Shown here piece by piece: positions 5,189-55,621 of a stretch of 64,000 nucleotides of DNA (positions are counted from its first letter, which is position 1; the number at the start of each line of letters is the position of its first letter). Made by a program: the position numbers and the translations under genes. This stretch comes from Patescibacteria group bacterium (GTDB lineage Bacteria; Patescibacteriota; Patescibacteriia; UBA9934): assembly GCA_041659765.1 (NCBI GenBank), contig JBAZXR010000001.1:108537-172536 (forward strand). The letters are read 5' to 3'. The notes under the pieces are model-generated. The model did no database searches. It was not told the DNA's origin and saw only the letters and a program-made list of their open reading frames with translations.

Positions 5189-5255
5189 AATTTAGAGAAA
5201 ATGTGAAGGGCGCGGAGGTTTTTTTGACTCGCCCTTGGCGGGGCTCGTTCAGAAC

Positions 5256-5363: not shown

Positions 5364-5400
5364 ACAAAATGATAGCAGAATGTATTTAAAAATGCAACTT

Positions 5401-5477: not shown

Positions 5478-5492
5478 AAAATTGAATATCTG

Positions 5493-5579
5493 TGGTACCA
5501 CGGGAGGGACTCGAACCCTCAATCCCTTACGAGAAACGGATTTTGAGTCCGTCGCGTATACCATTCCGCCACCGTGGCA
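5493..5579 (-). tRNA. tRNA-Leu (anticodon CAA)
   Basis: 87 nt with a long variable arm, anticodon loop CTCAAAA and a G1-U72 wobble. Confidence 0.8.
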
Positions 5580-5642
5580 CAGATGGGGCACATGGTAGCA
5601 GAACTTAGTAAAAAGGCAAAGTATGTTAGAATATCCCCGACT

Positions 5643-7417: not shown

Positions 7418-7446
7418 TTGACAAAAGCCCATTTTTCTGCTATAAT
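7418..7446 (+). promoter_or_regulatory. Near-consensus sigma70-type promoter P1 (TTGACA - 17 nt - TATAAT) with a conserved spacer AAAGCCCATTTTTCTGC
   Basis: Exact -35 and -10 hexamers at 17-nt spacing. The spacer is shared with promoters at 7850, 50995, 52460 and 54315. Confidence 0.7.
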
Positions 7447-7490: not shown

Positions 7491-7724
7491 ATGTTTCATA
7501 ACGTTGTTGAAGTGATGCCGCTCGCCCTCGGGCTTACCGTACTGCTCAGCGCCTCAATGACGACGATCTGTACTCTGTCGCCGCTTGCGACGGGTCGAAC
7601 GTGGGGATCGGCGATGAAGGAGATCGGGTGGCTGCTTCCGGGGTCCCATATTCACTTCTGCTACATGTTCGCAATCCTGATCGTGCCTACCGTACTCGGC
7701 GTCATCGTCGGATCCACTCGATAA
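7491..7724 (+). CDS. Small hydrophobic protein (2 TM), function unknown; higher-GC cassette gene
   Basis: 77 aa with its own promoter (P1), an SD GGGAGAAG and a terminator. It has a GC3-rich codon pattern unlike its neighbours. Confidence 0.5.
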   Translation: MFHNVVEVMPLALGLTVLLSASMTTICTLSPLATGRTWGSAMKEIGWLLPGSHIHFCYMFAILIVPTVLGVIVGSTR

Positions 7725-7849: not shown

Positions 7850-7878
7850 TATTCCATTGACAAAAGGCCATTTTTCTG
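7850..7878 (+). promoter_or_regulatory. Promoter P2 (TTGACA - AAAGGCCATTTTTCTGC - TATACT)
   Basis: Near-identical copy of P1 including the spacer. Confidence 0.7.
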
Positions 7879-7930
7879 CTATACTAGAAGGGTTTTCTGA
7901 TAGCAAATTTCACATCCTTTTGGAGGCATC

Positions 7931-8329
7931 ATGAAGAACTGCATTTGGTGTGGCGGGAGTCTCGTACCTGTGGACCTGCTCATCAACCAGCCGGAGAACC
8001 GTCGCCACTACTCGAACGCTGAGCTCATCGGATTCACTGATTCGAATGGGTTCCGTTGTGAGAACAGCGAGACATGCGGTGCGTTCTACTGTACGTCGCC
8101 GGGCGGTACCATTGAGGTCCTCGTGGGCAAGGCACGCTACGAACCGCTCAAGGACGGTGACTCGGACTACATCTGGGAGATCGTGGACTCGTGGACCATG
8201 TTCATTGACACCGAAGCCGGAAAGCGGGTCCTCGAAGACGTCCAAATCGAACGGGATTTCAAGCGGTACGGCACGATGGTTGATGACTGCTGGGACTTTC
8301 AAGATCTCGACGACTACGATCCTCTGTAG
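7931..8329 (+). CDS. Cysteine-rich (CxxC ... C ... C) acidic small protein, zinc-ribbon-like N-terminus, function unknown
   Basis: 132 aa (MKNCIWCGG..., FRCENSETCGAFYC) with an acidic C-terminus. It has its own promoter (P2), an SD GGAGG and a higher-GC codon pattern. Confidence 0.5.
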   Translation: MKNCIWCGGSLVPVDLLINQPENRRHYSNAELIGFTDSNGFRCENSETCGAFYCTSPGGTIEVLVGKARYEPLKDGDSDYIWEIVDSWTMFIDTEAGKRVLEDVQIERDFKRYGTMVDDCWDFQDLDDYDPL

Positions 8330-9868: not shown

Positions 9869-9945
9869 ATTTCAAACATAACTCGCCCTTGTTATCCCGT
9901 AAAGGGGAAGCGGTGGGGACGGAAACTGCGGTACAATAGCGCGGT

Positions 9946-23719: not shown

Positions 23720-23746
23720 TTCGTGGTAAAATGTGTGGGAGTTATG

Positions 23747-25471: not shown

Positions 25472-25477
25472 AACATT

Positions 25478-28400
25478 GTGAACATAAACCGCTTAAAACA
25501 CTTGGTTGTCGGGTTACTCGTCGCTACGAGCTCGGCTTTGCCGTTGGCTTTGCCAATGATCGCTTCCGCGCAGACGGACACGGTGACGAGCGGGCTTGAG
25601 ACCGTGGGTACAGCTACTGGTTTAGGAAATGAGGATCCGCGGATTATAGTGGCGAGAATTATTAGAGTAGTGATTTCTTCGCTCGGCGTAATCGCCGTGG
25701 TTATTGTTCTTTACGGCGGTTTCGTCTGGATGACCTCGGCTGGCAATGAAGAGAAGGTGAGTAAAGCTAAGAAGATTTTGTTGAGCGGCGGTATCGGTCT
25801 AATGATTATTCTGATGTCATGGTCCATCACCACCTTCATTATTAGTTCACTTTTGAGTGCAACTGGCGGTGGTGGTGGCGGTTCTGGCGGCGCAGGTGAC
25901 GGTGTAGGCGGAACTAGTCTGGGTGGCGGTTCTGGCAGTGGCTTTGTAGTAACCGGTATTGTTCCTAAGGGTGAGGTGACGATTAGAAATGTGCAGGTTC
26001 GTGTAACATTCTCGAAGAATGTTGATCCTGCAAGCATTGCTAACGCCTTTACGGTTAAAAATACCCTGACGGGTGCAGTCATTGCTGGTACGCCATCTGT
26101 TTCCGGAAACACCATTACTTTCAAACCTAGCACGCCTTGTTCGGACGCGGCACCAGCTCCGCTTTGTTTTGACGCGAGCACTCAGTTTACGGTCACCATG
26201 ACTACGGCCATTAAGAGTACCTCGGCGGTTGCTTTGACGTGTCCGACTAGCCGTCCCTGTGCTGGCAGCTTCACGACTGGAACTATAGTCGACGAGGTTC
26301 CGCCAACAGCTTTGATTACTGACCCTGACGCTGGACAGCGCGTGCCAGCCAATAGCTTTCAGAACGTTCAGGTGGTTGGTACTGATGATGTTGGTGTCGC
26401 TAGTGCTACCTTCTTGGCCGGTACTGTCAGTTTTGACGAAGTTCCGGCTACCGGAGCGGATCTCACGAGCGTAACAATTAGCGCTGATTGGGATACGAGC
26501 AACGAGGATGCTGGAAACTCGGTAAAATTGTCTTCCACTATTACTGACCTGGCTGGTAACACGGCTGAAGACTCAGTTGGGGTGCTCTTAGCACCAGCTT
26601 CATGCCAAAATAACGTCTTAGATTCCGGCAGTGGAGAAACGGGGATTGATTGTGGCGGTGATCCGACTAGCGCGAACTATTGTGGCGCGTGTGACGGCTC
26701 GGCTTGTACTTCTTCTACTGATTGTCAGTCCGGTTCTTGTGTGAGCGGTGTTTGTCGGGCTACGACCGTTATTAGAGCGGTTTCGCCATTGTCGGGTGCG
26801 CCTGGTACTTACGTCACAATTTCTGGTAATTCTTTTGGGGCAACGCCGGGCAAAGTTTTGTTTGTTGGTCCGGGCGCGCCAGTTGAGGCGGTTCTAGCTC
26901 CGTGTGCTGATGGTTGGACAGACCGCCAGGTAGTAGTCATGGTGCCGCCAGGTCCGGCTGGAACTGGTCCGATTACTATTGTGCGAGCAAATGCGGTAGA
27001 TGATTTTGATAAGGATTTAACTAATGATAATCGGGGTCCGCTCATTGCTAACTTCGTCGTGAACACGGTGGCGCATCCAAATCTGTGTGGTCTTTCGGCT
27101 ACCAGTGCCAAAGCTGGCGATTCGCTCACGCTTACCGGATCCGGTTTCGGCGCTAGTCGAGGGACTTCGGTAGTGGCCTTTGGTAGTAATCGTCCCGCCT
27201 CCACCTATTCGTCATGGTCTGATTCTTCCGCTCAGGTAGTGGTGCCGGTCGTAGCCTCTCGTGATGGCTCGTACGCTGTACATGTGGTTTCCGACGCCGG
27301 CATTTCGTCGAATAGCATTAGCTTACGCTTTACCTCGGCCGCTTCTTCTGGCGGATCTACAACCTCAGGTGGGACAACTACGCCGGGAGGCGTGACTACA
27401 CCAGGCGGGACTACTACTCCCGGTGGAACCACAACTCCAGGCGGAACCACTACGCCTGGCGGTTCAGCCGCCTCTGCACTTGTTCCGTCGCTCGTTTCGA
27501 TTGATCCTGGTCAGGGTGGAATAGGGCGTTACGTTAGTTTGACGGGCACAAATTTTGGTTCCGCTAAGGGGATTGTCAAGTTCACTAATACCGCGACCGG
27601 CGATACTGCGGTGGCTAGCTTGGATGTTTCTGCAGCCTGCGGTGCGGAAAACCCATGGGGTAACACGCTGATCAGATTTGTCGTTCCCGGCACCTATACA
27701 AATGGCACGGCCATCGCGGTCGCCGCACATACTGTGTCTATCACCTCAGCCAGTGGCCAGATTTCTAATACTGTTCCATTTACTATAATCGCTGATGATA
27801 CAAGACCGAATGTGTGCGGAATCGTGCCCGCTACTGGCCAGGCCGGGGATACGATAAAAATTGTTGGCGATCGGTTTGGCTCAACCAATGGCGCGGTTAC
27901 TTTTTCGTCGAGTGTGACTTCAGTCATCACCTCTTGGAGTAATACCGAAGTCAAAGTGACCGTTCCGGCCAGTGCTCAGAGCGGCAGTGTCACCCTAGCC
28001 AACGCCGCCGGAGTAAAAGGTAACAATGTTTATTTCAGCGTGGCTTCGCCTACTTCATCGGCTGGCGCGGTGGGCGGCGGCTATGCTTGGAGTTTTTCTT
28101 CCGGTTCCATTCCTAAAGTTCCAAGTTTGGTAACTGAGTGTTCGGCTTCGGTCGTTTCTGCTGTGCCGAATAACCGGTTTACGGACTCGGTTTGTACCAA
28201 TGCTGTGGTGTATGCCGAATTCACTCAGCCGATGAACCAGGCCACAGTGCAGGGTGCGGTGAAGGTTGACCGCTGTACCGGCGAAGGCTCTAACCCGTGT
28301 TCTTCGGTGATGGCGGTGACAGGTCAGACGCTCACTACTTTAAAATCTTTTACTTTTACGCCAAGCACGCCGCTGGCTATAAGTTCAACTTACCGCGTGA

Positions 28401-31400
28401 CCGTGGCCGCTACGGCTGAATCCGCCGATGGGGCAACTTTGGCTAGAGACGCTGAGTGGACTTTTGTGACAGCATCAACTAATACAGCTTGTTTAGTTGA
28501 TAGTGTCAGAGTGTCACCGGCCAAGGCGACTATTAACGTAAAGAACGGGACGGAAAGCTTCTCGGCCCTGCCGACGGCTGGTTGTGTGGTGCTTGACCCA
28601 GCTGGGGTTGAGTGGGATTGGGCACTGAATCCTAGTTTTGCGGCTCGTAATACAACGGCCAATCCGTCCTGTGTGGGCGGGTCTACGGCTTGTTTGACTG
28701 CTGAGGCTTTGGCCGAGGGTGTGACACCGGTCACGGCCACGGTGAGCAATACAGCGACAAACAGTTCAGCTAGTTTGACAATCGAGTTTACAGATCCGTA
28801 CGTCACCGGCGTTTGGCCTGATTGTGACGCCGCCTGCATGAACGCACAGATTGGGGCGAGCTTTAACATTCCAATGAATAAGCAGAGTCTTGAGGCCTCG
28901 GGGAACGTTCGGCTGTTTGAGTGTACAAACGAACTTTGCTCCGCTACTTCAGAGATTACGAGCCCGGACGCTAGATGTATGACGGTGACCGGTCAGTCTC
29001 CTGAGTGTACGGGCTTCGCCTTGAAGACCGTTACGCTCAACCCCGGTAAGTTTTATAAAGCACGGATTAGCGGCTCGGTTAGAAGCGTAAGCGGGGTGCC
29101 GTTGACTAGAACTAATGACGGAGGCGATTATTCTTGGGTGTTCCGCGCTCGGGAAGACGCTAGTGCTTGCGTGGTCAGCCGAGTTTCTATTTCTCCGGCC
29201 ACTGCTCTAGCCAAGGCGGTTGGTGACAAAACAACCTTTACGAGTACGGCCTTTGGCGAAGCTGATAGCTGTTCACAGTCTGGTCAGCGACTAACCGGCT
29301 TCTCTTACTCATGGACCTGGGCCAACCCGATTATTGATGAGGATCTGGATAGCAATCCGGCTACTAAAGTAGCAGAGTGGCTAGGTTCTTCACTTCGAGA
29401 CACTTCTCCTTCAGCTATTCCATCTGCCTGCTCCGCATCATGTACTCCTGGTGGCAGCGTGCCTTATGAAGCGATTTGCGGTGACGGGGTGCTTGATCTT
29501 ACAGGCGGCGAGGAATGTGAAGATGGCAACGTGGCCAATGGCGACGGTTGTTCAGCTTCTTGTTTGCATGAGGGGACTAGCGCGCCAACTTGTGGCAACG
29601 GCCTTATTGATACCGCCGAGGATTGCGATGACCGTAATCTGATTGATGGTGACGGTTGTTCAAATAGGTGTCAGTCCGAAGGTTCGCGCTCAGTTGGCGC
29701 AACCTGTGGAAATAATGATATCGCTCGTAACGCCACCACAAAAGCTGGCGAAGAATGTGATGATAGTAACGCTAAAAATGGTGATGGCTGTTCTTCCAAC
29801 TGTACCAATGAGGGGACACCGTCATTAGCGTCTATCGGCGGGGCGGTTTGCGGTGACCGCGTAGTCAACATACCGGGCGAGGGTTGCGACGATGGAAACA
29901 TTATTAACGGCGATGGTTGTTCGTCGGTTTGTTTGCATGAAGGCTCGCTTACGACTTGTGGAGTTGGCGGGGTTGACGCTGGCGAGGATTGTGATGATGG
30001 AAACGGGTTGAACGGTGACGGCTGTTCCTCCAGATGTTTGTTTGAGGGCTCTTCGGTGGCTTACTCGCTGCCATCTTTCTGTGGCGATGGCGTGGTTGGA
30101 ACGGGCGAATATCCGGCCTGCGAAGCTGGTGTAACAGGTGACGGTCGAATTGATCCTTTGCAAACCGCCATCATCAGTAGTGATGCAGCTTTTGAGGTAG
30201 ACTTGGCGACCAAGCGGGCGCACGCTACGGTTGAGGTTAAAGAAAACTCCTCTGGTCTATCTACTACCGCTGATCTTTCTTTGTCGTGCGTAGCCACCTC
30301 TGATGCCAGCTGTTCGGACCCTGCTCACAACGGCGTCGGTTCAGCTAGCTGCTGCATGCCACGGCCAACGGTGACGCTGATCCCAACCTCTGCTTCTACA
30401 ACCTGCCGTAATCCGGCCTTGTACGGTATCTTTTCTCAGAAGATGGATCTAGAATCATTTACTACTACCAACACTGACAGAGCGCTGACGGTTGAGACTG
30501 ACCACTTGTACCTGCAACTGGACTTGCCGGCTACCACTGCTCTTCCTGGAATGCCAGGTTCTGAGATTAGGTGTCCAAGTGGGTATCGCGTAGCTTTTGG
30601 TCATGATCCAAAGGGCTTCTTAGCTCGGGCAAAAAATACCATCGTTCGCTTCTTCGTTGGTGATTCAGCAGTCGCCGCGGAAGGTAAATGCTTGCTGCCG
30701 GTTACTGGCTACGAGCAGGTTGAACAGGACGATGGAACGTACAAAATTTATCTAAAATACGCTAAAGCGCTTGAGCCAAATGCGTCTTATACCCTTGTGG
30801 TTGATGGTGATCCAAATGTTCAAGATGGAGTAATAGTTGGAGTTACTTCAGTTTCAGGTGTTGGTTTGAACGGCACGGCCTCGTCTACATTTAGAACTGG
30901 CCCGAACCTATGTTCGTTAGATGAGGTCAAGGTGACCGACAACTACCGTGCGTCGCCCTACCTCTTTACGCGGGGTGATGAGGTGCATGCGTTTACGGCT
31001 GCAGGTATTTCTCATACGAATGGCCTAATTCAGGAAATCCAACCGATTCTCGGAGTCTACGATTGGGATTTTGATAAATGGAAGATTGCTGATGAGACCC
31101 TGTTTGGAGTGTCAGCTATCGGACCCAATATTCCTCATGACACTGTTGATATTAAATCCTTAGCGAAAAACGGCTCGACGAGTCTTTCAGCGCAGGCCAC
31201 TATTGGAGCAGACACGTTTGGCGGCACGACAGGCAAGAAAGTGATCGGTTCGACTGGGATAACGGCATTTTTATGTGAGAATCCTTGGCCGCCTCTACCT
31301 AAGTTCCCGTGGTCTGATGACCCGGCGGGCGAAGCTAACGGACTCGCATCGCAGGGGACTGAGGGCTGGATGAACATTTCTAGTTATTACTGTCGCGATC

Positions 31401-34400
31401 AGGGAGCGGTGGGCGTAGCTGCTGATCTGCCGACTGTTACGCCGGTTCGTCCGCCGGTAGCCGGAACTTCAAATATTATCAAGCAATACTTGTTTGAGGT
31501 GAGTGATGGTTCTGGCGACGCAATCGGCCTTCGAGTGGTGAGCAATCCGGGCTACCTCTCGCCGATGGCTTGGTATCGGGCTCAGAACTTCAAGGGCGGT
31601 CCCAAGGAGACTGTAGTGGATGGTTTTGCGGCGGTACAGGACGGCAGTACGGTGTATGTGGCTGCTCCTAACTATGCCAATGGCAAGTTCTATTCCAATA
31701 TCTACGTTTTGTCTGCCAATGAGGGGGCGAACGAAGCGACGCTAAAGATTTTTGCGAGCATGCTTGAGAATCTTAAGTTTGCGATTGACCTGAATGACGT
31801 GACTGTCTGTACTATTGGCGGATCCTTGTCGGATACAAGCTGCTCTTCGGATGATGATTGTCTGGCTCTTGGGGCTGGTGCAGTTTGTCCGTCTTTAAAG
31901 GCGAAGGTGCGCCGTGATACTCAGAGACTATCTGATTTGACGACTATCCGTTCAGCTATTACAGCCTACGGCGTGGATAATAGAGTATGTTCCATCACCA
32001 GGTCTCAGTCTTGCGCTTCAAATATTGAATGTCCGGTTGGCGAGTCCTGCGCATCAATTATTCCGGCGCTGTCTGCTGGAACCTTCGTGCGCAATTTCTC
32101 TGCTAGCCCGTGGACTAGCTGGGGCGACATGCTGGGTGGCGCGCTTGGCGCGAAGGAACTGCCAGTTGACCCGTTGAATGCCTTCACACCTAATACTTGC
32201 GGAGTAGTGGGTGGGCCATTAGCTAGTTTTGATCAGGCCAACTGCGTTGACCAGTCAAAGGGAACGTATACATGTCCGTTTGGTTCTCACGTGTACCAGT
32301 ATTTGGCGCAGGGAGACAGCTCGGTGAAACTATCGGCTAACCTTGAATTCTTTGAGGTGTGGGCTAGTCCAATTGATAATAATGGTTCGGCCGATGGAGT
32401 GGATATTACAGTTGGTAGAGCTAACGTGTCGGCTGATGGCTTTAGCACGGGGGACGTATGTTCAGGCGCGGTGCTTGGCAGTTCTGCCGTTTGCGGCGAC
32501 GGCGTAGTGGGCAGTGGCGAGGCCTGTGAACTTGGTCAGCGTGAGACTACAGTCGCCATCTGTGATGGTAATAATGATGGAATTATTGATGGTTTCAAGA
32601 CCAGGGTTTGTAATTCATCCTGTACCGCTTTTGTGGATGATCCTCAAGCCGTCTGCGTTTCACCTACTTGCGGGAATGCGGTCAAAGAGGGTTCTGAAGA
32701 GTGCGATGACGGTTCAAAAAATGGCTCGTACGGTTTCTGTGGAGCTGACTGTAGACGAGCCAGCGCCTTCTCTTGCGGAGATGGCTCTTTGGCCGGTGGC
32801 GAGAAATGTGATTGTGGCTCAAGCGGATCTCTGACTGGTCGTCGGGCTAATGGCAACGGCATCTGTCAGGTTTATAACGGCGTGTATCAGTCCAGTCCTT
32901 CAGCCTCATGTGCTTGGGATTGTTCCGGTCCAGCGCCATACTGCGGCGACAAGCATGTTGATAGCGGCGAACAATGCGATGGTACAGATGAGTTCTGGGA
33001 CGGAAAGTTGTGTTCAAGCGGCTCGCTGATTGGCCAGCCATGTACATCTGACAGTATGTGCGGAACCGCTGGCTTATGTGGCGGAACTAGCGCCTATGCG
33101 GCTTGTCCGGTCGGGGAGACGCGCACTCATGATTGTAATGACGCCGTGGGTGCTAGCTGTGCCTACTCAAATACTTGGCTAGCTGCTACCTGCGTCAGGG
33201 TAGGAACTTGCGGAGATGGTGTTGTCCAGAGCGGTCTAGAGCAGTGTGACGACGGAAATCAAAATGACACTGACGCCTGCACTCATTTGTGTAAGGTTAA
33301 CGTTTGCGGTGACGCTGCTCTTAACCCGCAGACAGAAGAATGTGACCTGGGCACGCAGAACGGCGGTTCTTGCAGCTCATCTTACGGCTCTACTTGCACC
33401 GCTTGTTCTGTGACCTGCCGCAACGTTATTTCATCCGGCGCGTTCTGTGGTGACGGCGTGAAGAATGGCACGGAGTTCTGTGATGGTTCTGACGTGCCAC
33501 TGACTTACTTCGATTCTGCCACCATGAAGGCCGGTGGGTCATGTGCTACGGACGGGGCAACGTCCAGCATTTATACCTGTCGTAGTTTAGGCGTGTGTAA
33601 CGGTGGAGCTAAGAATGGTCAGCTCTGTACAGCCGGATATATTGGTAGCACTGGTCCTGATTCCTACGCTCTTGATGTAGCTGACTGTACAGATTTAACC
33701 GGCAGTTACGAATGCGTTAAGCCGGCTTGTTCCGGTACTTGTTCTTCCTCCTGCCCGCTAACCTTTGCTAGTACCAGCTTGCTCATGACAGCTAATCAGC
33801 CAGGTTCGCGCCCAAGCCCAAGTGTCGATCTCTACTCGTACAACACGAGCTCTACCTCAACTCTGCCCAACGCGGCTACTATTACGGTTCCTGCTTGTAC
33901 GGTATTGCCCTCGGTTTCCGCGAACATCCGTTACGCCGAGAACTATGAACCACCGCAGGTGTACGTGATGTTCATCACTGATCTTTCGCAAACGATGAAA
34001 TACCGGGTCCGTGACGATGTTCTTCCTGGTTCAGGCGAAAAATCTCGGTTGGCTGTGGCGCAGGCTTCCATGGACTCAGCAACTGCAAGTTTGTATGAGA
34101 AGTTTGGTGCTAACGTGCATATCGGTTCGATCGGCTTCAAAGGTTTGGCGCAAGGAACTTGCTACAATAAAACCAACACATCCTGCACGGCGGGGACGGC
34201 TGCGGGCGATACTACTTGTTCAAACTTAACTCCGGGTGACTTCTGCTTGGACAAAACATCTCAGATTTCTGCTTCAACTATTACCTATCCGTTCGGTGAT
34301 ATCTATAGCTATAAGCTTGCTGATAGCACGGGGGCGTATTCGTTCGCTGATCAGCCGCAGATGTCTTCGCTAGTTTCGGCTATTGACTCAATGTTCGTTG

Positions 34401-35020
34401 ACAAAACGGGACCAACTGGTTGTACATCTAGTCCTTGTCAGTCAACAAATATCCATGGGACGAGAACTTATGAAGGTTTGGTTGAAGCTCGTCAGATGTT
34501 TAAGAAGATTAATGATTTGTCGACCACGGATAAGACTAATACCCGGTACATCGGGATCCTGCTATCTGATGGCGAGTATACGAACACAGACCCGCTCATT
34601 GAAGCAGCTGCATGGAAGGATAAATACGAGCTTTATACGGCCACAATCGGCAATGATTCGGCGTTCATTGCGCAGATGAACAGGTGGTCGACGAATAGTT
34701 GGGATGGAACTACGGCCAACACGAGTTCTGACACGTACAATGGCGTTGATTATTCCTTTACGGCATCAACGGATACGCAATTAACGGGCATTTATAGCCA
34801 GATAGTTAATACGATCCAAAATATTAGCGTTAAACTGGTTGTTGATAGTGGAGCTGCCTCGACTAGCGTGAATACTGGAAACGGAATCTCGCTCGTTTTG
34901 CCGCAAGGCTTTGCCTGCGACAAGCTTCACTCACAGAACGTGCCTATTCAGGTGACCTTTGCAGGCAAGGGGCAAATGACTATTAGTGACGTGCGTGTAA
35001 ATTATTGTGCGGCTCCATAG
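25478..35020 (+). CDS. Giant (3180 aa) VirB2/TrbC-anchored surface protein with Ig-like/IPT domains, Myxococcus-type cysteine-rich repeats (DUF4215-like) and a vWA domain with MIDAS
   Basis: GTG start 7 nt after the upstream stop. Its N-terminus is paralogous to the 23747 gene. It has IPT/Big-like segments, a (TTPGG)n linker, about six CG(D/N)GxxDxxEECDDGNxxxGDGCSxxC repeats (aa ~1330-1530) plus a second array (aa ~2340-2660), and DxSxS (ITDLSQTM) of a vWA/MIDAS at aa ~2830. Confidence 0.75.
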
Positions 35021-43735: not shown

Positions 43736-45175
43736 TCACTTGCGGGTGCAGGCCGTTTGGCCTTGAGTAGTGGGGCAGTACACGGTGGCGCCGAGGATGT
43801 TGATTTCCACGAGCTCGCCGCTTTTCTGCTTGCGCATCTCGTCCACGATCGCTTCGGGGGCGAGTTTGGCGCCATGCAGCGTGATCAGACCTTTGCCTGT
43901 GGCGCTGGCCGCTACTCCCTGGCCGCAGATGGTGATTTCCTCCTGCCCGTTGGTGGTGACATCCACGTTTTTGAGCGTGGCTACCACACAGTTCTGACCG
44001 TCGCCGAGCGCATAGCTTGAGATCACCGTGAAGGTGGGTTTAGCTGCGGTCGTTTCAGGCGGCAGTGTCGGGAGGCTGATCTTCGGCGGTTCGGCCGGGG
44101 CCACGGGTGCGGTAGGCACTTGCTCCACGTTGGTCGGCTGAGCTGTGGTGGCTTGAACCTCCGTGGCCGGTTTCTCGGTTAGGCTGATGCCGTAACCAAT
44201 CAACCCGAGCGCTCCGATGACGGCTATCACCCCCAGGCTGATGCCGAGGATTGCGCCGAGGTTACTTACTTCCTTCGACTCCGGGCGGATCAGACGAGTC
44301 GCTGGAGCGACCGGCGTTTCAAGGTCGCTCGCCAGGTCAATCAGGGTAATGTTCTGATCATCCTGTTGCTCTTTGAACCGGTTACGGGTGGTGGGGGAGA
44401 CTTCCTTGTCGTCCAGACCCGGTTCATCTTTGGGGAACTGCCGGTGCGGTTTGACCGGCGCAATGGCCGGGGCAGCCGTCGCTGCTTCCGCCTTGAGCGT
44501 TTCCACCATCTTCGCCGTTTGTTCTTCCAGTTCGGCCTTGGCTTGATCCACCGCCGATCCCAGGGTAGGGGCGGGCATTTGTACGGCCCTTGGCTGGGCT
44601 GGTGCCGGGGTCGGCTCCATCATGGGCGGGGCAATGTCCGGCGGTACCGTGTCCGTTCTGGCTGCCGAGGATTGCACAGACCTGAGCCTCTCCATAAAAT
44701 CCACGAGGTTGTCTCGGGGCTCAATTTTTTTACTGACTGGCTCAGTGGTCGAGATAGGTCCGACCCGTTCCACCATCTCAGCTGGTGAGCGTGCAGCACC
44801 ACCAGAAGGTGGCGACATGACAGCGTCATCCCAGACGACATCTGATGAACCAATGTACTCGGTCGTTACGGGATGTTGACCCGTGTACGGACTTGGACCA
44901 GGGTCGTCATCGTCAGGAATCCTGGTCGGTTTCCGTTCGATGATCTGTTCCGCCTTTTTCTTGAAGTGCTCAAGGCGCTCCAGCTCTTTGGGGCTAAGCT
45001 TGCTCACGAAGATGATGGCCCCCATGAGAATAGTGGCATTCGGGGCGGGCGTACCTTCTTCCCCCGCCTTCCCGGTTACCACGAGCTCCTCAATGAATTC
45101 AAGACAAGCTTCTCGGTCATCGGGGTTGAACCCGTCATCGCTGATGATCGTTTGACCATTGGAATTGCTGGACAT
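43736..45175 (-). CDS. Hypothetical bitopic membrane protein: ~300 aa cytoplasmic N-terminal region with Pro-rich linker, one TM helix, ~150 aa extracellular Cys-containing C-terminal domain
   Basis: 479 aa with a single strong hydrophobic helix (LGAILGISLGVIAVIGALGLIGYGI). Its own promoter is at 45246..45275. Confidence 0.55.
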   Translation of the reverse strand: MSSNSNGQTIISDDGFNPDDREACLEFIEELVVTGKAGEEGTPAPNATILMGAIIFVSKLSPKELERLEHFKKKAEQIIERKPTRIPDDDDPGPSPYTGQHPVTTEYIGSSDVVWDDAVMSPPSGGAARSPAEMVERVGPISTTEPVSKKIEPRDNLVDFMERLRSVQSSAARTDTVPPDIAPPMMEPTPAPAQPRAVQMPAPTLGSAVDQAKAELEEQTAKMVETLKAEAATAAPAIAPVKPHRQFPKDEPGLDDKEVSPTTRNRFKEQQDDQNITLIDLASDLETPVAPATRLIRPESKEVSNLGAILGISLGVIAVIGALGLIGYGISLTEKPATEVQATTAQPTNVEQVPTAPVAPAEPPKISLPTLPPETTAAKPTFTVISSYALGDGQNCVVATLKNVDVTTNGQEEITICGQGVAASATGKGLITLHGAKLAPEAIVDEMRKQKSGELVEINILGATVYCPTTQGQTACTRK

Positions 45176-46632: not shown

Positions 46633-47027
46633 TGGTGGACCTGGCGGGAGTTGAACCCGCGTCCGAAAGTGATTAGAGAATGACTTGTTACATGCTTTGC
46701 CCGGCTGGGTAATGAAATCGCTCGAGCCGAGCAAAAGACGATTTCATATGTCTCTGAACCGTAATCGCAGTGAAGGCAGAGACGCCCTATACTGCACAGT
46801 CAGTCTTTATAGCACCCGGACTCTTCCCGATTGACATGGAAGGCGGATGTGGCAAGGGCGCTTAGGCCGTGGCCATGGAAAGTGATGGGGCAAATGCGAA
46901 ACGCATTGCTTCCTTCACCTTAGAGAATACATTGGCGTGTATGTCGTTGTACCAGGTGATACGGAGTCCGGTACCTCTCCTGCATGATCATTTCCCCTCA
47001 CAGCTTTCGTCGAAGCCTGGCAGGCCC
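46633..47027 (-). ncRNA. ssrA: tmRNA (SsrA), ~395 nt
   Basis: Reverse complement begins GGGCCUGCCAGGCUUCGACG and ends GGACGCGGGUUCAACUCCCGCCAGGUCCACCA. The acceptor stem GGGCCUG/CAGGUCC includes the G3-U70 wobble, with T-arm GCGGG-UUCAACU-CCCGC. An internal ORF ends ...SLSMATA-UAA. It lies directly downstream of smpB. Confidence 0.85.
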
Positions 47028-49696: not shown

Positions 49697-50758
49697 ATGA
49701 AAACAGATCAACGAATATTTGGCGCGGTCATTGTCCTGTCCATTATTTTAGGCGGGGGAGCGGGCATTATTAGCTCGACTATGACGTCTAGAGCTATCGA
49801 GTCTTATGCGGCTCAACTGCTAAATGATCAAAAGTTGATTTCACTTATTCCTCGGAAGTCACCGGCCATTCCGGGAACTTTTGAAGAAGCAATGAAGAAA
49901 AATAGAGAAGCGAGTCTTCGTTCGCTGGCTGTTTTGCTTCCGGCGAGTACGCCAAGCACCGCTGCTTCCGGTTGGATTTTTCCGGAAGGTGCTTTGAAAC
50001 TGGGCGTGCCAGTGACGAGTGACGGTTGGATTTTGACCTCCAGCGCTACTTTTAGTTCTAAGCTTTTGCCAAAAGATTGGGATGTTTATGTAGAGGGTAA
50101 GAGATTTGTGATTGATCGAGTCGTCCGGGATCCGCATTCAACCTTGGTTCTATTAAAACTGCAGAATGCGAGTGGACTTTTAACCGTTAGCTTTGGTAAA
50201 CCTGAAGATGTAGAAAGCGGCAGTACGGTTATTGGTTGGGGCGGGGAAGAAGATGTTCGAGCCACCCTGCTCGAAGCTGCCGATGCTGACACCAGACAGG
50301 GTCCGCAGAGCGCTGAGGTTTTTGCTACTACTTGGCGAGTTGGTTCGAGCTTACCGGCCGGCGTGCCAGTTTTTTCTTCTGACGCTGAACTCTTAGGCTT
50401 TGTGACTAGCGGAACGGATATCTTCCCGCTCCATCACTCCGGTGAGTTTGTGCAGGATGTACTTAAGAGCGGTTCGCCTAAGCTGGCTAAACTTGGGGTG
50501 ACGGTACTTGATCTCTCGCGCTCCTATAATGTGAGCGCTGAGGTGACTCAGGGCAGAGGGGAGGGCGCGTTGGTTCTGAATGCGGTTGGTCTGCTCCAGG
50601 CGTTGGACATCATTCTGGATGTAGACGGCCGGGCGGTCACCCATGCGGATACGCTGGCTGAGATATTGGCCGATTATGAACCGGGCGAAATAGCTAACAT
50701 TCATGTACTTAGAGCGGGCCAAAATGTGCAATTGGCCGTTACTTTGGGAGAATTATAG
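49697..50758 (+). CDS. HtrA/trypsin-like fold protein with C-terminal PDZ domain; canonical GNSGGP catalytic motif not seen (possibly inactive)
   Basis: N-terminal TM, a beta-rich middle region and a PDZ-like C-terminus (GVTVLDLS...GALVLNAV...LRAGQNVQLAVTLGEL). Confidence 0.5.
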   Translation: MKTDQRIFGAVIVLSIILGGGAGIISSTMTSRAIESYAAQLLNDQKLISLIPRKSPAIPGTFEEAMKKNREASLRSLAVLLPASTPSTAASGWIFPEGALKLGVPVTSDGWILTSSATFSSKLLPKDWDVYVEGKRFVIDRVVRDPHSTLVLLKLQNASGLLTVSFGKPEDVESGSTVIGWGGEEDVRATLLEAADADTRQGPQSAEVFATTWRVGSSLPAGVPVFSSDAELLGFVTSGTDIFPLHHSGEFVQDVLKSGSPKLAKLGVTVLDLSRSYNVSAEVTQGRGEGALVLNAVGLLQALDIILDVDGRAVTHADTLAEILADYEPGEIANIHVLRAGQNVQLAVTLGEL

Positions 50759-50994
50759 TCCCCAGCCTCTCTTGCGGGTTTTTTGCATCCCTGTTAATTT
50801 TCTGCGGACATGCCCCTTTTGAGGGCCCGATGGAACGGTCGTGACGCCTCCTCCTCGTCGCGATTTGTGACCGTTGGGCCTTCAAAGGGGGTATTGTAAT
50901 TTTGGCTAACAATAGCCTATAAAATCGTTTTCGGGATCCGGTTTCCGGTTTCATGGATCCGGAGTCCCGGACATCGGACACCGGACGCAAATAC

Positions 50995-51023
50995 TTGACA
51001 AAAGCCTGTTTTTTTGCTATTAT
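50995..51023 (+). promoter_or_regulatory. Promoter P3 (TTGACA - AAAGCCTGTTTTTTTGC - TATTAT)
   Basis: Copy of the shared promoter. It is preceded by CGGACA-type direct repeats (50967..50988). Confidence 0.65.
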
Positions 51024-51220
51024 AGGTTGTTCTTTCAAACGAAAGAATTGGCTAACAAAACCTCCAGAATCGTCGCTCCGACGGCTTGGTATCCTTTGGC
51101 GTTCCTCCTCCAAACGCTAAGGTTGATGCCAGGTCATTGGAGCGCCGATTGCAGGCGCCGGTAAACTGACGTGTTGTCAGAACCGTCTTGCAGCGGACTC
51201 AAAAATCCCTTGGAGGGTAC

Positions 51221-52381
51221 ATGTTGACCATGATCCTGTGCGTCTTGACGAATTTTGCTCTGGCGACCGGCCCTGCGCCGACGCCTCCGGCCGCCACCGA
51301 GCCGGCCCCTGCGGTTTTGGTCGAGCCCCCGGATGAAAAGCCGGAGTGCAAGATCCAGGACGCCTGCACGGAGGCCGAACTGGCCGCGATGAAGCTGTGG
51401 ATGGCGGACATGGATGCCTGGCGCGCCCGTATGGGCAAGCCGAGCGCCACGACCGTCGAATTCCGCAAGAAGGTGGCGTGGTTGTGCGCTCAGCACAACG
51501 ACTGCCTCGACCCTGTCGCGGCAGCCCCGGCAGTCACGCGGCCGCCGGTGGTCACGCCCGTGGAGCCGCCCAAGAAGACCCCCCTCGAACAGCTCAAGGG
51601 GATCGTGACCGGTACGCCGAAGCCCGACGAGGGCGGAACGCGGCCGAGCCCGGACATGCCGACGACCATCGATCCGACGCCGACGATGCCGAGCGCAACT
51701 GCGACGGGTGGCCAGGCCACCGCCACGAACATCGTGGAAACGGTGGAACCAGCCACGACGGTCGAGCCCGGTCCGTCGAGCGCCTCCATCACCCGCACGG
51801 TGACGGAAGCGGACGGCCCCCGGCTCGGTCCCATCGCTGGGATCGAGTTCGTGCGCCAGGCTGAGATCCGCGGCGTGACCGCTCCGAGCATGCTCACTGA
51901 GCTGATCGGTGCGTCCCTCCGTCTGGGTGACAGCCATGGTCCGTTCGTGTCCGGTCGAGGCGCAGGCTTCGTCGGTTCGGAAGGGGCGCAGGGCGCGCTC
52001 GGTGGTCTGACCATCGGTGCCGGCCTGGACGGCCTGCTGGAATTCGGGGTTCTCTCCGAGTTCTACGTGTACGAGGTGCGCGGTGCTGGCGAACGGAGCA
52101 ATCCGTACGTCCAGGCCAAGTACTCCGGCCTCCGTAACGGCTTGAGCCTCTCGCTCTCGCCGGGTTCGGAAGACCGCGTCCTCCTCACCGCCAGTGGCTC
52201 CGTCGACCTGTTCCATGGTCGGGTGGAGACCAAGGACGGCCGGTGGGCGGACCTGTCGCCCACGCTCGGCCTCAGCCTCACCTGGTTCCCGAAGATCAGC
52301 GATCGGACGGAAACGGTGACGGTCACCGGTATGGCTTCGGACTCGAAGCCGCCCCGTGGTCAGGAAGTCCCGCTGCACTAG
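51221..52381 (+). CDS. Secreted Pro/Thr-rich protein with C-terminal beta-rich domain (high-GC island gene 1)
   Basis: Signal peptide (MLTMILCVLTNFALA), PAPTPP linkers, a Cys pair and a Gly/Ser-rich alternating C-terminus. SD GGAGGG precedes it. The coding sequence is much more G+C rich than its neighbours. Confidence 0.6.
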   Translation: MLTMILCVLTNFALATGPAPTPPAATEPAPAVLVEPPDEKPECKIQDACTEAELAAMKLWMADMDAWRARMGKPSATTVEFRKKVAWLCAQHNDCLDPVAAAPAVTRPPVVTPVEPPKKTPLEQLKGIVTGTPKPDEGGTRPSPDMPTTIDPTPTMPSATATGGQATATNIVETVEPATTVEPGPSSASITRTVTEADGPRLGPIAGIEFVRQAEIRGVTAPSMLTELIGASLRLGDSHGPFVSGRGAGFVGSEGAQGALGGLTIGAGLDGLLEFGVLSEFYVYEVRGAGERSNPYVQAKYSGLRNGLSLSLSPGSEDRVLLTASGSVDLFHGRVETKDGRWADLSPTLGLSLTWFPKISDRTETVTVTGMASDSKPPRGQEVPLH

Positions 52382-52401
52382 CGGGCAATCGAATGGGCGG
52401 C

Positions 52402-52438
52402 GGCTCTGGTGAAGGATCGAATCCTTGTCACCAGAGCC
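52402..52438 (+). terminator. Long GC-rich hairpin (ggctctggtga...tcaccagagcc) after island gene 1
   Basis: ~16-bp stem. No T-run follows, which is typical of high-GC donor-type terminators. Confidence 0.4.
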
Positions 52439-52459
52439 GTCGCACCTCTCTTTCAATGA

Positions 52460-52488
52460 TTGACAAAAGTCTAAAAATCTGCTATAGT
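52460..52488 (+). promoter_or_regulatory. Promoter P4 (TTGACA - AAAGTCTAAAAATCTGC - TATAGT)
   Basis: Shared promoter consensus inside the high-GC island, followed by a ~180-nt structured 5' UTR. Confidence 0.65.
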
Positions 52489-52671
52489 AGTTCGTTACAG
52501 AATTAGTGAAATCCCGTGATGTTAGCGCATGAAGTTCATGCCCTGACATCGCCGGATTTCTCTCACGGCGATAAGCGAGTAATCGCGAATTGCTTGTGAG
52601 AGAGTGTTCCGGAGTGTTCCTTTCCTGCTAGACAAACAACCCGGGCCATCGTGCCCTATACGAGGTGACTA

Positions 52672-54225
52672 ATGTCACGCTTTGCAACGATTGCTGTTCT
52701 GTTCTTGGGTGCGTGCGGTGGGCAGTTCGCCCCCGACGAAATCGAGACCGGCGGCAACGACACCGGTTCCAACGCTGACGCCGACACCGACGCCGACTCG
52801 GACTCCGATACGGACTCCGATACGGACGCCGACGCCGACGTCGACACGGGCACCAACGAGGTCCCGTTCTACGACATCGACGGCGACGGGCGCGAGGACA
52901 AGCCGGCCACGGACGGCCTCATCCCGGTTGGGATGAACGTCTCGATCGCCGAGTTCAACACGCCGCCCGCGTTCCTGGACGAGTTGTACTTCGTTCCGTA
53001 CGGCGAGAACTGCAGCACCAGCTACAAGCTGTGGCGCGTCACGACCGTCGACGGCGCGGGCTACTTCGCCTGGACGCTCCGGAGCAATACCGGAACGATC
53101 GCAGGGAACGTCCGCAAGGTCACCTGGAACGAAGACGGCAGCTGCTACCTGGACGACGGATCGCTCGACTTCTGGGGCAACCTGGAAGCGGACAACATGG
53201 TCGGTGATCCGGCCATCGTTCCGAGCCTCGTGGACACCTACGAGGACGAGCAGACCCACGAGGTCAAGCACCGCATGATGGTGTGCCTCGAAGTCCGCGG
53301 CATGAGCACGATCCCGGGCAACCCGCTCGCCTGCCAGCAGATGCAGCAGGACGCTGGGCCGGTCGTGGATCCGGTCGAGACCATCTGGTACCGCGACTTC
53401 GACAACGACGGGTACGGCGATGCGGGAACCACCAAGTGGTCCGTGGCGCAGCCGGCAGAATACATCGGAGTCCCCGGCGATTGCTGGGATGACAACGACG
53501 AGGTTCACCCCGGTGCGACCGAAGTGGTCGATGGCCTCGACAACGACTGCGACGTGGTCAAGGACTGCGCCGACGCGAACGTGTCGAAGGTCTCGGAGAT
53601 CACGGGCGACGGCTACGACAACGACTGCAACACGTCGACGTCGGACACCGTTCCCTCGGCTACCCCGACCGACTGGTACCTGGACTCGGACGGCGACGGC
53701 TTCGGCAGCGCAGTCTCGAAGCTCTCGGCCGTGGCGCAGCCTGCGGGCTACGTCAGCAACGGCACCGACTGCGACGATGCGAAGAGGGACCGCTTCCCCG
53801 GCGCGACCGAGATCGCGGGCGACGGCATCGACCAGGACTGCAACGGCAGCGACCTGGCGACGGTACCTTCGGGTGACGGCCGCACGCTCGGCACGTGGAC
53901 CTTCACGTTGGATTCCAACGTGTCGGCGAGCGTGACCCAGTTCGAGATCCGGAACACGACCGCGAGCACCGTGGTCAGCCAGCTCAGCCGGAGCGGCAAC
54001 GTCTTCACCGTGCAGATCATGGGGAAGACGGGGGACGATCTGTCCGCGCAGTGCTGGTACACGAAGCCGGACGGGGTCACCGAGTGGTGCGCAAGCAACA
54101 ACCACTCGGGCAAGATCCTCTCGGCCACCGGTCCCGGCGGCGCGTACACGGTCGGTCAGCTCACGGGCGACTTCAAGTACGCCTCCGTGGACTCCGGTAA
54201 GCGGTACAACGGCAAGGTCAAGTAA
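52672..54225 (+). CDS. Lipoprotein with poly-Asp/Thr/Ser acidic linker and MopE-like putative metal-binding repeats (high-GC island gene 2)
   Basis: Lipobox LFLGAC, a (DxDx)n acidic tract, and repeats DNDGYGDAG...PGDCWDDNDEVHPGATEVVDGLDNDCD and DSDGDGFG...GTDCDDAKRDRFPGATEIAGDGIDQDCNG. Confidence 0.65.
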   Translation: MSRFATIAVLFLGACGGQFAPDEIETGGNDTGSNADADTDADSDSDTDSDTDADADVDTGTNEVPFYDIDGDGREDKPATDGLIPVGMNVSIAEFNTPPAFLDELYFVPYGENCSTSYKLWRVTTVDGAGYFAWTLRSNTGTIAGNVRKVTWNEDGSCYLDDGSLDFWGNLEADNMVGDPAIVPSLVDTYEDEQTHEVKHRMMVCLEVRGMSTIPGNPLACQQMQQDAGPVVDPVETIWYRDFDNDGYGDAGTTKWSVAQPAEYIGVPGDCWDDNDEVHPGATEVVDGLDNDCDVVKDCADANVSKVSEITGDGYDNDCNTSTSDTVPSATPTDWYLDSDGDGFGSAVSKLSAVAQPAGYVSNGTDCDDAKRDRFPGATEIAGDGIDQDCNGSDLATVPSGDGRTLGTWTFTLDSNVSASVTQFEIRNTTASTVVSQLSRSGNVFTVQIMGKTGDDLSAQCWYTKPDGVTEWCASNNHSGKILSATGPGGAYTVGQLTGDFKYASVDSGKRYNGKVK

Positions 54226-54250
54226 GCTAGGCATTCGGCCTGGCACGTAA

Positions 54251-54300
54251 AAGGGCGGCTATCGCGAGACATCATCGCGAAGCCGCCCTTCTTCTATTTT
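54251..54300 (+). terminator. Terminator after island gene 2 (aagggcggc ... gccgccctt + T-rich)
   Basis: 9-bp stem enclosing an inner hairpin, followed by a T-rich stretch. Confidence 0.5.
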
Positions 54301-54314
54301 AGGGGTTGTCAGGC

Positions 54315-54343
54315 TTGACGAAAGCCATTTTTTAGACTACAGT
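54315..54343 (+). promoter_or_regulatory. Promoter P5 (TTGACG - AAAGCCATTTTTTAGAC - TACAGT)
   Basis: A diverged copy of the shared promoter. Confidence 0.55.
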
Positions 54344-54384
54344 TCTCGGTCCGTTCGGATAGCATCCGTCGGCAAGGAGGACTC

Positions 54385-54921
54385 ATGAATCGCATTCTGT
54401 TCTTGGCCGTTCTGGCCTTCACCGCGCTCACTGGTTGCCAGATGCATCCGGATGCGCCCAATGGGAACCAGTCCGGCGGCGGCAACAACGATCAAGGCGA
54501 CGACATCATCCAGCAGGAGCCTGCGCTCGTCGAGATCATCGCCACGCAGGAGGACATCGACGGCACGAACGTCAGCCTCTACGCGAAGGGCGAGGGCAAC
54601 GACAACGTCAACTGGATCGCGAACCCGAACGCCGTCCCGATCGACACGGACTCGGACGGCCGCGGCGAGATCGGCAACTGGACCCAGTTCGAGGTGGCCT
54701 GCGGGGAGGAAATCACCCTCCAGTGCAACTTCCGCGACCGACAGGGTCGCGAGCGTTGGTGCTTCGAGAACGACCCGGACGACGGCGGGACCAACCAGTT
54801 CCTCGCGGACGACGTTTGGGTGGACGGCGTGGTGTCCAGGCTCCGGCCCGTCTTCAACGAGTGGACCGGCGCCAACGACTCCCACGGCTACAACGCCGTC
54901 ATCACCCGGAACTGCCGGTAG
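54385..54921 (+). CDS. Small Cys-containing lipoprotein (high-GC island gene 3)
   Basis: Lipobox LTGC, a Gly/Asn-rich linker and SD AAGGAGG. Confidence 0.6.
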   Translation: MNRILFLAVLAFTALTGCQMHPDAPNGNQSGGGNNDQGDDIIQQEPALVEIIATQEDIDGTNVSLYAKGEGNDNVNWIANPNAVPIDTDSDGRGEIGNWTQFEVACGEEITLQCNFRDRQGRERWCFENDPDDGGTNQFLADDVWVDGVVSRLRPVFNEWTGANDSHGYNAVITRNCR

Positions 54922-55090
54922 ATCGTCACGTTCGGCTCGTCCCCTGGGGCGCTGTGCAGCAATGCATGGCGCTCTTTTTTATTGGGCGTGGCGAGCCACG
55001 CCCTTACAGCGAACTTGCTATGTACAGCTCGGCTTGCCCGTTTAGCTCGTTCTGCTACCCTCAACAGAGATATCTTAGAGGAGGCTTTTT

Positions 55091-55621
55091 ATGACTACAC
55101 GCTTGATTGCAGGGATTATTACTAGCGCGGTGCTTTTGACGGCGGGTTGGGGATGTGCAAAGACCACCCCCTCTATCCCCCTGGAAGGGGGAAGCGGCGA
55201 ACCCGAGGTGAAGGGCGTAGTCGACGAGTTGCCCGACGGAAAGGGGCCGGCGCCTTTTGAACTGTGCATCAGTACTGATGGCCCGGTTACCGGCGCGGTT
55301 TGGTTGTACGCCGCAAACAATACGGCGCCTCGTCTTAACTGGACGCAGTGGTTTTCTGCAGACCCAGTTGCGGCTGGGGATGCCGGCCAAGAAATTTGCG
55401 GAGCCCTTAATTTCTCCATTGAATCTGGCGATACCCTTTATTTGAACGGCACCTGGTCCAAAGGCAAGAACTTCCTAGTTAACAATCGCGGCGAGCAGGG
55501 CACACCAAGCGATCAGATCAAAGAAATTTGGCTTGATGATCAATTCTACGAGATTGGTAGGGATTGCGCTTACGAGAATAATAATATGGGAGGATATAAC
55601 CTAGCCTGCACGGTTCGGTAA
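55091..55621 (+). CDS. Small Cys-containing lipoprotein, distant paralogue of 54385..54921 but with host-like GC
   Basis: Lipobox TAGWGC, shared NWTQ(W)F and C-terminal Cys patterns, and SD GAGGAGG. Confidence 0.55.
   Translation: MTTRLIAGIITSAVLLTAGWGCAKTTPSIPLEGGSGEPEVKGVVDELPDGKGPAPFELCISTDGPVTGAVWLYAANNTAPRLNWTQWFSADPVAAGDAGQEICGALNFSIESGDTLYLNGTWSKGKNFLVNNRGEQGTPSDQIKEIWLDDQFYEIGRDCAYENNNMGGYNLACTVR

Follow-up and report, generated by a model that had tools for sequence, protein, structure and literature searches.

A conserved block of three predicted envelope-protein genes with maintained G/C-ending codon usage in Patescibacteria

A 64-kb stretch of DNA from a Patescibacteria group bacterium (contig JBAZXR010000001.1, positions 108,537 to 172,536; hereafter the window) contains a block of three genes, here termed A, B and C, that departs sharply from its surroundings in base composition. 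We consider it most probable, at roughly 0.6, that this block is a vertically inherited, clade-wide trio of fast-evolving envelope genes in which selection tied to very high expression preserves the G/C-ending codons. We are highly confident that the block is conserved and that its composition is maintained, and moderately so that expression-linked selection is what drives the high G+C content at third codon positions (GC3). A preliminary description of the window had taken the block for horizontally acquired cargo refitted with native promoters. That reading is not supported, given that the block lies, wholly or in part, at the same place on eight further contigs, that no donor was found and that the enrichment is confined to coding sequence; the fallback offered there, a compositionally distinct set of secreted-protein cassettes, is closer to the data.

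Gene A (51221..52381, + strand) encodes a secreted protein of 386 residues, and gene B (52672..54225, +) and gene C (54385..54921, +) encode putative lipoproteins of 517 and 178 residues, the latter Cys-containing. In 1-kb windows across the 64-kb stretch the G+C content is 0.606–0.659 at 51–55 kb as against 0.474–0.557 in 59 of the 60 other windows, with about 52% outside the block; the single outlying window elsewhere (44–45 kb, 0.598) is due to a gene for a 479-residue protein considered below. Finer, 200-nucleotide windows place the climb at about 51.1–51.2 kb and the end at about 54.95 kb, with a return to 0.465–0.55 in each spacer. The block as a whole (51.2–54.9 kb) has 61–66% G+C, and the excess lies almost wholly in third codon positions. 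For gene A, GC3 is 0.82 when counting begins at the TTG at 51188; with the ATG at 51221, which is preceded by a GGAGG and is the true start in place of that TTG, it is 0.83. Genes B and C have values of 0.90 and 0.91. The 29 other genes of the window have a GC3 of 0.549 ± 0.047, with a maximum of 0.665. The compositional step reported earlier is therefore borne out both by sliding-window G+C and by GC3 (0.82–0.91 versus 0.55 ± 0.05).

At four-fold degenerate sites the block uses A, C, G and T at frequencies of 0.03, 0.47, 0.39 and 0.11, as compared to 0.17, 0.28, 0.27 and 0.28 in the background, and A-ending codons have nearly gone from its genes. G+C at the first and second codon positions (GC1 and GC2) is near background for genes B and C. 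The enrichment sets in at each start codon and halts at each stop codon: the four spacers of the block region have 0.50–0.55 G+C, and the variable or gapped columns in alignments of the A|B and B|C spacers have 0.48–0.53. Since even those non-coding positions that are free to vary have this composition, the enrichment is specific to coding sequence. The first 25 codons of the genes, which specify the signal peptides, are likewise G/C-enriched (0.64–0.96, slightly below the remainder of the genes), and this rules out chimeric genes in which a native signal peptide was joined to a foreign mature part. The block also contains long antisense open reading frames (ORFs), which had been suspected to be spurious products of the codon bias. 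They are real as reading frames and result from the codon usage of the block: in four of the six genes with a whole-gene antisense ORF it is kept under synonymous-codon shuffling, and the observed length is reached in just 5 of 200 shuffles for gene B of the window and 13 of 200 for gene A of the related locus L008. Functional antisense genes are ruled out, as the ORFs mostly survive such shuffles, are interrupted in two orthologues and had no match in a Pfam search.

Related contigs, eight beyond the window, were recovered by exact-protein look-ups and by scans with the product of the neighbouring gene GT4, which yielded four loci from genomes and five from metagenomes, a thin phylogenetic sampling. 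The gene order HtrA-like, A, B, C, D, GT4, XseA, XseB, where D is a further putative lipoprotein gene, is found in whole or in part in the loci L002, L003 (with L004/L005), L007 and L017. The relationship is deeper for L008, L013, L014 and L015: their GT4 products are only 43–52% identical, and they too have exported-protein genes at the matching position. Block genes have a GC3 of 0.75–0.94 on each contig, their neighbours, D included, have 0.39–0.65, and the spacers of L017 have 0.49–0.52 G+C. An empty site was not seen among the eight related contigs, a small sample, all of which have a block at the matching position. One of these contigs, L003/L011 (GCA_964348985.1, CAYGEQ010000007.1), is labelled 'uncultured Gammaproteobacteria bacterium'; given its full synteny with the Patescibacteria locus and a GT4 identity of 83%, it has probably been mis-binned.

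The flanking proteins are 82–95% identical between the window and L002, L003 and L007, and synonymous sites in these flanks are saturated, with a proportion of synonymous differences (pS) of 0.67–0.80 and a synonymous divergence (dS) from 1.7 to unmeasurable. Block proteins are only 35–70% identical, with a nonsynonymous divergence (dN) of 0.22–0.69 as against 0.06–0.16 in the flanks (0.06–0.13 in comparisons involving the window), and evolve about 2–10 times faster. We compared the observed GC3 with a two-state decay model, a back-of-envelope calculation in which an insert starts at a GC3 of 0.95. Neutral amelioration of such an insert would by now have brought its GC3 down to about 0.65 at most in every lineage, and further in the more distant ones. 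The observed 0.75–0.94 lies above this prediction despite the saturated flanks, which indicates that the high GC3 is maintained. Comparison of the locus in related genomes, which the preliminary description had proposed as a check on its reading, thus speaks against import.

The locus also holds its own control in the form of gene D (55091..55621, +; 176 residues, putative lipoprotein), which lies between C and the GT4 gene. The span between the HtrA-like and GT4 genes, earlier treated as a single G+C-rich island, includes this fourth lipoprotein gene of normal composition (GC3 0.565). Gene D lies 170 bp from C, to which it is weakly paralogous (26% identity across 151 residues; single-comparison E = 0.006), and lacks a consensus promoter. 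Its rate of evolution is similar to that of C (dN of 0.15–0.25 versus 0.22–0.32), and it has a normal GC3 and a saturated dS in every lineage. A gene of the same protein class, adjacent to the block and evolving at a similar rate, is hence free of both the strong promoter and the bias. Genes for other surface proteins of the window, among them one of 3180 residues with a pilin-like N-terminus and Ig-like domains, likewise have a normal GC3.

Each gene of the block has its own near-consensus promoter, its own leader and its own terminator, as described earlier. P3, the promoter of A (50995..51023, +), is a TTGACA-17-TATTAT element that matches the consensus at 11/12 positions with a TG-extended -10, and is conserved in L007, L017 and L008. 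P4, the promoter of B (52460..52488, +), is TTGACA-17-TATAGT, likewise 11/12 with a TG-extended -10, and its spacer and -10 region are conserved in L002, L003/L005, L007, L017 and L015. P5, the promoter of C (54315..54343, +), is TTGACG-17-TACAGT, matches at 9/12 and is conserved in L002, L003, L008 and L017. The 5' leaders are about 190 nucleotides long for A, 177 for B and 35 for C. The block promoters belong to an extended class with the form TTGACAAAAGnC...TTTTT..TGCTATAnT, of which further copies lie at 7418 and 7857 and a looser version at 45275 (-). Only four promoter sites of at least 11/12 are present in the 64 kb, two of them in the block. Gene A is followed by a terminator-like hairpin with a weak U tract (52395..52443, +; -43.1 kcal/mol, z = -6.7), gene B by a terminator hairpin with a U-rich tail (54251..54290, +; z = -7.7) that is conserved in L002 and L003, and gene C by an intrinsic terminator with a 13-bp stem and then UUUUUU (54946..54975, +). 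The three genes would accordingly form independent transcription units, which the pairing of a near-consensus extended -10 promoter with a hairpin terminator suggests are built for very high output, and A and B have a long conserved structured leader besides.

Raised GC3 accompanies this promoter class elsewhere in the window. The six genes that lie behind promoters of the form TTGACAAAAG...TGCTATAnT all have a raised GC3 (0.67–0.91), and five of them rank among the six highest of the window (Mann-Whitney p = 3e-7). When nine loci are taken together, the presence of a promoter of at least 10/12 within 330 nucleotides goes with a mean GC3 0.21 above the median of the locus, as against 0.00 for the other genes (p = 5e-8, although the orthologues behind this value are not independent). 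Outside the block, the class is found before a 77-residue membrane ORF (7491-7724, +; promoter 7418-7446, 12/12; GC3 0.69) and a 132-residue Cys-rich ORF (7931-8329, +; promoter 7857-7885, 11/12; GC3 0.74), neither of which has a family match. A similar promoter at about 45275 precedes the gene for the 479-residue protein mentioned above (43736-45175, -), which has a Pro-rich region and a C-terminal transmembrane segment, and whose GC3 is 0.67 overall, climbing from about 0.57 to 0.78 over the length of the gene. This link between GC3 and promoter class suggests that synonymous sites are under selection in proportion to expression.

The bias is not classical tRNA-matching selection, because the ribosomal protein genes have near-background GC3 and no G-over-A preference. 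In a small sample, the ribosomal protein and IF3 genes have a GC3 of 0.53–0.63. The preference for C over T is 0.64 in these genes, 0.48 in the background and 0.90 in the block; that for G over A is 0.53, 0.55 and 0.84, respectively, and is thus not shared by them. Ordinary translational selection therefore fails to account for the block, unless envelope proteins vastly outnumber ribosomal ones in such tiny cells.

Genes A, B and C are predicted from their N-termini to specify exported cell-envelope proteins, one secreted and two lipoproteins, in keeping with the earlier reading. By eye, the lipobox is L-G-A-C in B, L-T-G-C in C and a non-canonical G-W-G-C in D, as judged against the pattern [LVI][ASTVI][GAS]C; a match of gene C to PF08139 scores 16.8 bits, under the cut-off of 20. 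In the product of A, a signal peptide precedes a short helical region with Cys, and a linker rich in Pro and Thr leads on to a Gly-rich C-terminal domain that is predicted to be beta-rich. The signal peptide and Pro/Thr-rich character had been recognised before, and the beta-rich C-terminal part, also proposed then, is suggested by a low-confidence structural model. Predicted structures were poor in general, with a mean predicted local distance difference test score (pLDDT) of 31.6 for A and 47.3 for C. Pfam searches with the products of A to D gave just the MopE motif in B and the sub-threshold lipoprotein-site match in C, none of the four had a match in NCBIfam, and for A, B and C nothing meaningful was found among the sequences of the PDB. 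In particular, no recognisable S-layer or anchoring domain (SLH or similar) was detected in A and C in Pfam, NCBIfam or the PDB.

Gene B could be resolved further. Its product has an acidic (D-x)n tract at residues 35-58 (52774-52845), an N-terminal and a C-terminal domain, and a pair of Cys/Asp-rich repeats of the MopE type encoded at about 53386-53559 and 53668-53849. Both the acidic tract and the repeats had been noted in the preliminary description, and the latter are now supported by a score of 57.2 bits against PF11617 (Cu-binding_MopE, a putative metal-binding motif), distributed over two stretches and well above the gathering cut-off of 27 (E = 2e-15). The repeats constitute about a third of the gene only. 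The product is a mosaic, in that its N-terminal domain is close to the L017 allele (8513-9907) and its C-terminal domain to the L002 allele (1412-2887). Such mosaicism would imply recombination between diverged alleles, and appears to point to domain exchange and diversifying pressure, as for a surface adhesin.

Homologues of these proteins are remarkably restricted. Protein A (WC813_00875 in the NCBI, on an 897-kb contig) has a single homologue cluster in a collection of 5.8 billion proteins, and a profile search among 1.84 billion representatives retrieved just four proteins in all. Protein C (WC813_00885) has only two homologue clusters, both from syntenic loci. In these two collections A and C thus have essentially no homologues beyond the syntenic Patescibacteria loci. 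Full-length homologues of B, with the N- and C-terminal domains and the acidic tract, are confined to the same loci, while the repeat third matches thousands of proteins from many phyla, including Myxococcota, Bacteroidota and Patescibacteria itself.

Under the explanation we favour, selection would act on the synonymous sites of translated sequence and scale with expression level, and the GC3 would be neither leftover donor composition nor the outcome of a regional mutational or recombinational bias. Judged by the quality of their promoters, A, B and C would be the genes with the highest expression in the cell. The selected property might be a G+C-rich mRNA or the codons as such, acting through mRNA stability or through translation where ribosomes are few. 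In groundwater, the ultra-small cells of this group contain no more than tens of ribosomes and have a conspicuous surface layer. In a cell of this kind envelope proteins would far outnumber ribosomal ones, and selection might plausibly favour G+C-rich mRNAs that are long-lived and protected by their leaders. Among the highly expressed genes of other Patescibacteria, some for signal-peptide proteins of unknown function have been reported (PMC10936435). Experiments have further shown selection for higher genic G+C at synonymous sites that is independent of the codon preference of the species (Kelkar et al. 2015, PMC4478552), and the pattern in the block fits, by analogy, this second kind of codon bias. 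The two cases are alike in their independence from the usual translational codon preference and in a plausible tie to gene expression. They differ in that the published work concerned genome-wide composition and laboratory constructs, whereas here the effect is seen in a few genes of a 52% G+C genome, amounts to +0.35 in GC3 and persists across deeply diverged lineages.

Several observations weigh against this explanation. Expression level is read from promoter quality only, and the association of GC3 with the promoter class was noticed after the fact, the test having been devised once the pattern had been seen. The association is also imperfect: the gene for an EamA-like transporter (1464-1883) has a GC3 of 0.76 without such a promoter, and the L017 orthologue of the gene for the 479-residue protein has the promoter with a GC3 of just 0.56. 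The ribosomal protein genes stay near background (L7/L12 0.56, L20 0.57, L10 0.62, L35 0.63). Moreover, C- and G-ending codons are used about equally in the block, which resembles the general G+C pressure of a high-G+C genome, and the mosaicism of gene B between lineages means that recombination acts at this locus.

The last two points are what would be expected if diversifying envelope alleles were exchanged at a recombination hot spot and heteroduplex repair favoured G/C, so that the composition arose by GC-biased gene conversion. The fast divergence of the block relative to its flanks and the combination of an L017-like with an L002-like domain in gene B would fit such a process, as would the enrichment of both C- and G-ending codons by a composition-level force. 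Nevertheless, we judge biased conversion to be unlikely. The enrichment halts at start and stop codons and the variable positions of the A|B and B|C spacers are not G+C-rich; regional processes, be it block transfer, biased conversion or transcription-linked mutation, all predict G+C-rich spacers, and the 0.48–0.53 seen there is a point against each of them. Gene D, a mere 170 bp from C and equally fast, is unaffected in every lineage, and GC1 and GC2 of genes B and C are not raised despite a rapid turnover of amino acids. Reported effects of recombination on GC3 in bacteria are also far below +0.35. A transcription-associated mutation or repair bias, in which heavy transcription shifts the spectrum towards G/C, would explain why raised GC3 accompanies the strong promoter class. 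Yet the untranslated leaders of about 190 and 177 nucleotides and the 3' regions, though transcribed along with the genes, have about 50% G+C, variable positions included, and the effect is concentrated in third codon positions. The damage known to accompany transcription, in which the non-template strand is deaminated, moreover reduces G+C. We regard this account as very doubtful.

Horizontal transfer from a high-G+C donor could have occurred either as one ancient event in the ancestor of the clade, followed by very slow amelioration, or as a recurrent replacement of the coding parts from an unsampled pool, for example that of a host organism. The codon usage of the block does resemble that of a genome with 65–67% G+C, repeats of the MopE type abound in Myxococcota and further phyla, and the very high divergence of orthologues and the mosaic gene B also count in favour of transfer. 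Even so, transfer in either form seems distinctly improbable to us. The block keeps its syntenic position on eight further contigs whose flanks have saturated synonymous sites, and the two large protein collections contain no homologues of A and C from anywhere else, with only the repeats of B matching other phyla. Because compositional boundaries coincide with the coding sequences of three genes that are separated by native spacers, three precise replacements would be needed in each lineage. The signal-peptide codons are G/C-enriched too. The earlier statement that mobility signatures are lacking stands: there is no integrase-sized ORF in the ORF list of the window, no tRNA within about 4 kb of the block (the nearest tRNA or tmRNA is more than 4 kb off, with conserved genes between) and no flanking direct repeats in a search around the block. 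A tmRNA gene does lie upstream (46633-47027, -); as the genes between it and the block are conserved in L017, it is not an integration site of the block.

A contaminant high-G+C fragment misjoined during assembly is commended by the compositional step itself and by nothing else, and the chance of it is negligible. A second assembly, from run SRR18595301, is identical over 52547-55195, a span that crosses the spacer-to-B and C-to-D composition boundaries, and eight other assemblies from other samples have the same junctions. The spacers of the block, moreover, contain the genome's own type of promoter. A chimeric assembly is hence very unlikely.

Beyond the terminators, the locus has several conserved RNA structures. 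The hairpin H1 (50810..50894, +) is situated after the HtrA-like gene's own terminator and before P3, and comprises a 36-bp imperfect stem with the apical loop CCUCCUCCU and a T-rich tail. It is nearly invariant across six lineages, in which 97% of alignment cells pair and 10 pairs show compensatory changes; this degree of pairing is reached by 0–1 of 500 shuffles, and slid controls pair at 44–56%. A covariance model of H1 scores 103–112 bits on the + strand, as against about 32 on the opposite one, and finds one copy per locus and no further copies in the window or the other loci. The second hairpin, H2 (51076..51142, +), lies in the 5' untranslated region of A and has an anti-Shine-Dalgarno-like apical loop, CCUCCUCCA, at 51104-51111. 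In six lineages 9 of its 27 stem pairs have changed on both sides, as have 10 of the 30 pairs of the whole fold that includes it. H2 is kept even where the GT4 products are only 43–45% identical (L014, about 2740-2810; L015, about 2830-2900). The leader of B has two conserved 5'-proximal hairpins (52518..52569, +) that hold 18 of the 21 pairs of its fold, and both-side changes occur in 8 of the 13 pairs of the first and in none of the second. Rfam searches with the leaders and H1, at gathering and at permissive thresholds, found no family and returned only chance matches to microRNA hairpins. In L015 an insert of about 950 nucleotides (1800-2750) separates H1 from the promoter of the first block gene; it appears to have short repeats (cgaaactagcctaaaataaaa) and a putative tRNA-like stretch near 2618-2695.

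C-rich-loop regulatory RNAs and anti-Shine-Dalgarno hairpins, such as those of the RsaE/RoxS type, offer a parallel to H1 and H2, each of which displays a CCUCC-containing apical loop that could in principle pair with GGAGG sites. Sequence or Rfam relationship between them is absent. H1 could be a small RNA or a 3'-untranslated element aimed at Shine-Dalgarno sequences, and hairpins with CCUCC loops may act on mRNA stability or on access to the Shine-Dalgarno sequence. A tentative proposal, to which we give somewhat less than even odds, is that a small envelope regulon has been recoded almost entirely to G/C-ending codons, and held so over saturating divergence, for the sake of a G+C-rich mRNA itself rather than of tRNA matching, which would benefit the few transcripts that dominate expression where ribosomes are very scarce, with H1 and H2 providing a shared post-transcriptional control.

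The nearest likeness of the block may be to the genes for S-layer and other major envelope proteins, such as slpA of Lactobacillus and rsaA of Caulobacter. These are monocistronic and share with the block a very strong promoter, a long structured leader thought to stabilise the mRNA, a strong terminator, a signal peptide in the product, a marked codon bias and a rapid divergence of the protein between close relatives. The block differs from them in the absence of a known S-layer or anchoring domain, in that two of its three products are putative lipoproteins, and in the nature of its bias, a blanket preference for G/C-ending codons that ribosomal protein genes do not share. With genomic islands it has in common a sharp compositional deviation over several kb that encode surface proteins. 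Unlike such islands, it is devoid of mobility genes, a tRNA target, flanking repeats and homologues in a donor, is syntenic across lineages, has spacers of native composition and shows no amelioration. As for MopE-type proteins, B resembles them in its two repeats and in a whole-protein score above the PF11617 threshold, with metal binding remaining putative, but its N- and C-terminal domains and acidic tract are matched only in syntenic loci.

We found no earlier description of such a block in the literature on Patescibacteria that deals with codon usage, GC3 or MopE. Local spikes in G+C or codon usage are routinely read as horizontal transfer, and here a spike of +0.35 in GC3 is conserved in position and size. 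Since it is kept over saturated neutral sites and in coding sequence only, it has to be maintained, and together with the built-in control of gene D this makes the locus a natural test case for selection on G+C. If the tentative proposal of recoding for a G+C-rich mRNA is true, nature would here have repeated, lineage by lineage, an experiment in which selection acts directly on the G+C content of genes, and would caution against taking every compositional island of a reduced genome for foreign DNA. A, B and C are candidates, and likely ones, for major surface proteins of an uncultured ultra-small bacterium, the class of molecules most likely to mediate attachment to a host. H1 and H2 add two new conserved RNA hairpins with anti-Shine-Dalgarno-like loops.

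Other genes of the window and of related genomes deserve mention. The upstream neighbour of the block (49697-50758) bears only a weak resemblance to HtrA, with scores of 23.9 against a cut-off of 27 for PDZ_2 and of 20.4 against 27.6 for Trypsin_2. Further upstream there is a gene for a cupredoxin/plastocyanin-like small lipoprotein (PF00127; 42920-43387, +). Two large proteins of 582 and 3180 residues are encoded at 23723-35020 (+); their N-termini resemble type IV secretion pilins, they have Big_5 Ig-like, TIG and DUF4215 domains, and the GC3 of their genes is normal (0.49–0.53). At a non-orthologous site in a different Patescibacteria genome (L009), two lipoprotein genes at 2221-4086 (+) and 4485-6374 (-) have a GC3 of 0.76–0.77 versus a locus median of 0.54, and raised GC3 in exported-protein genes may thus be more widespread in the group. 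Finally, the L10 gene (58833-59357 in the window, 6709-7233 in L003) has a pS of 0.32 as against 0.67–0.80 in its neighbours, which suggests a strong synonymous or RNA-level constraint of another kind than that on the block.

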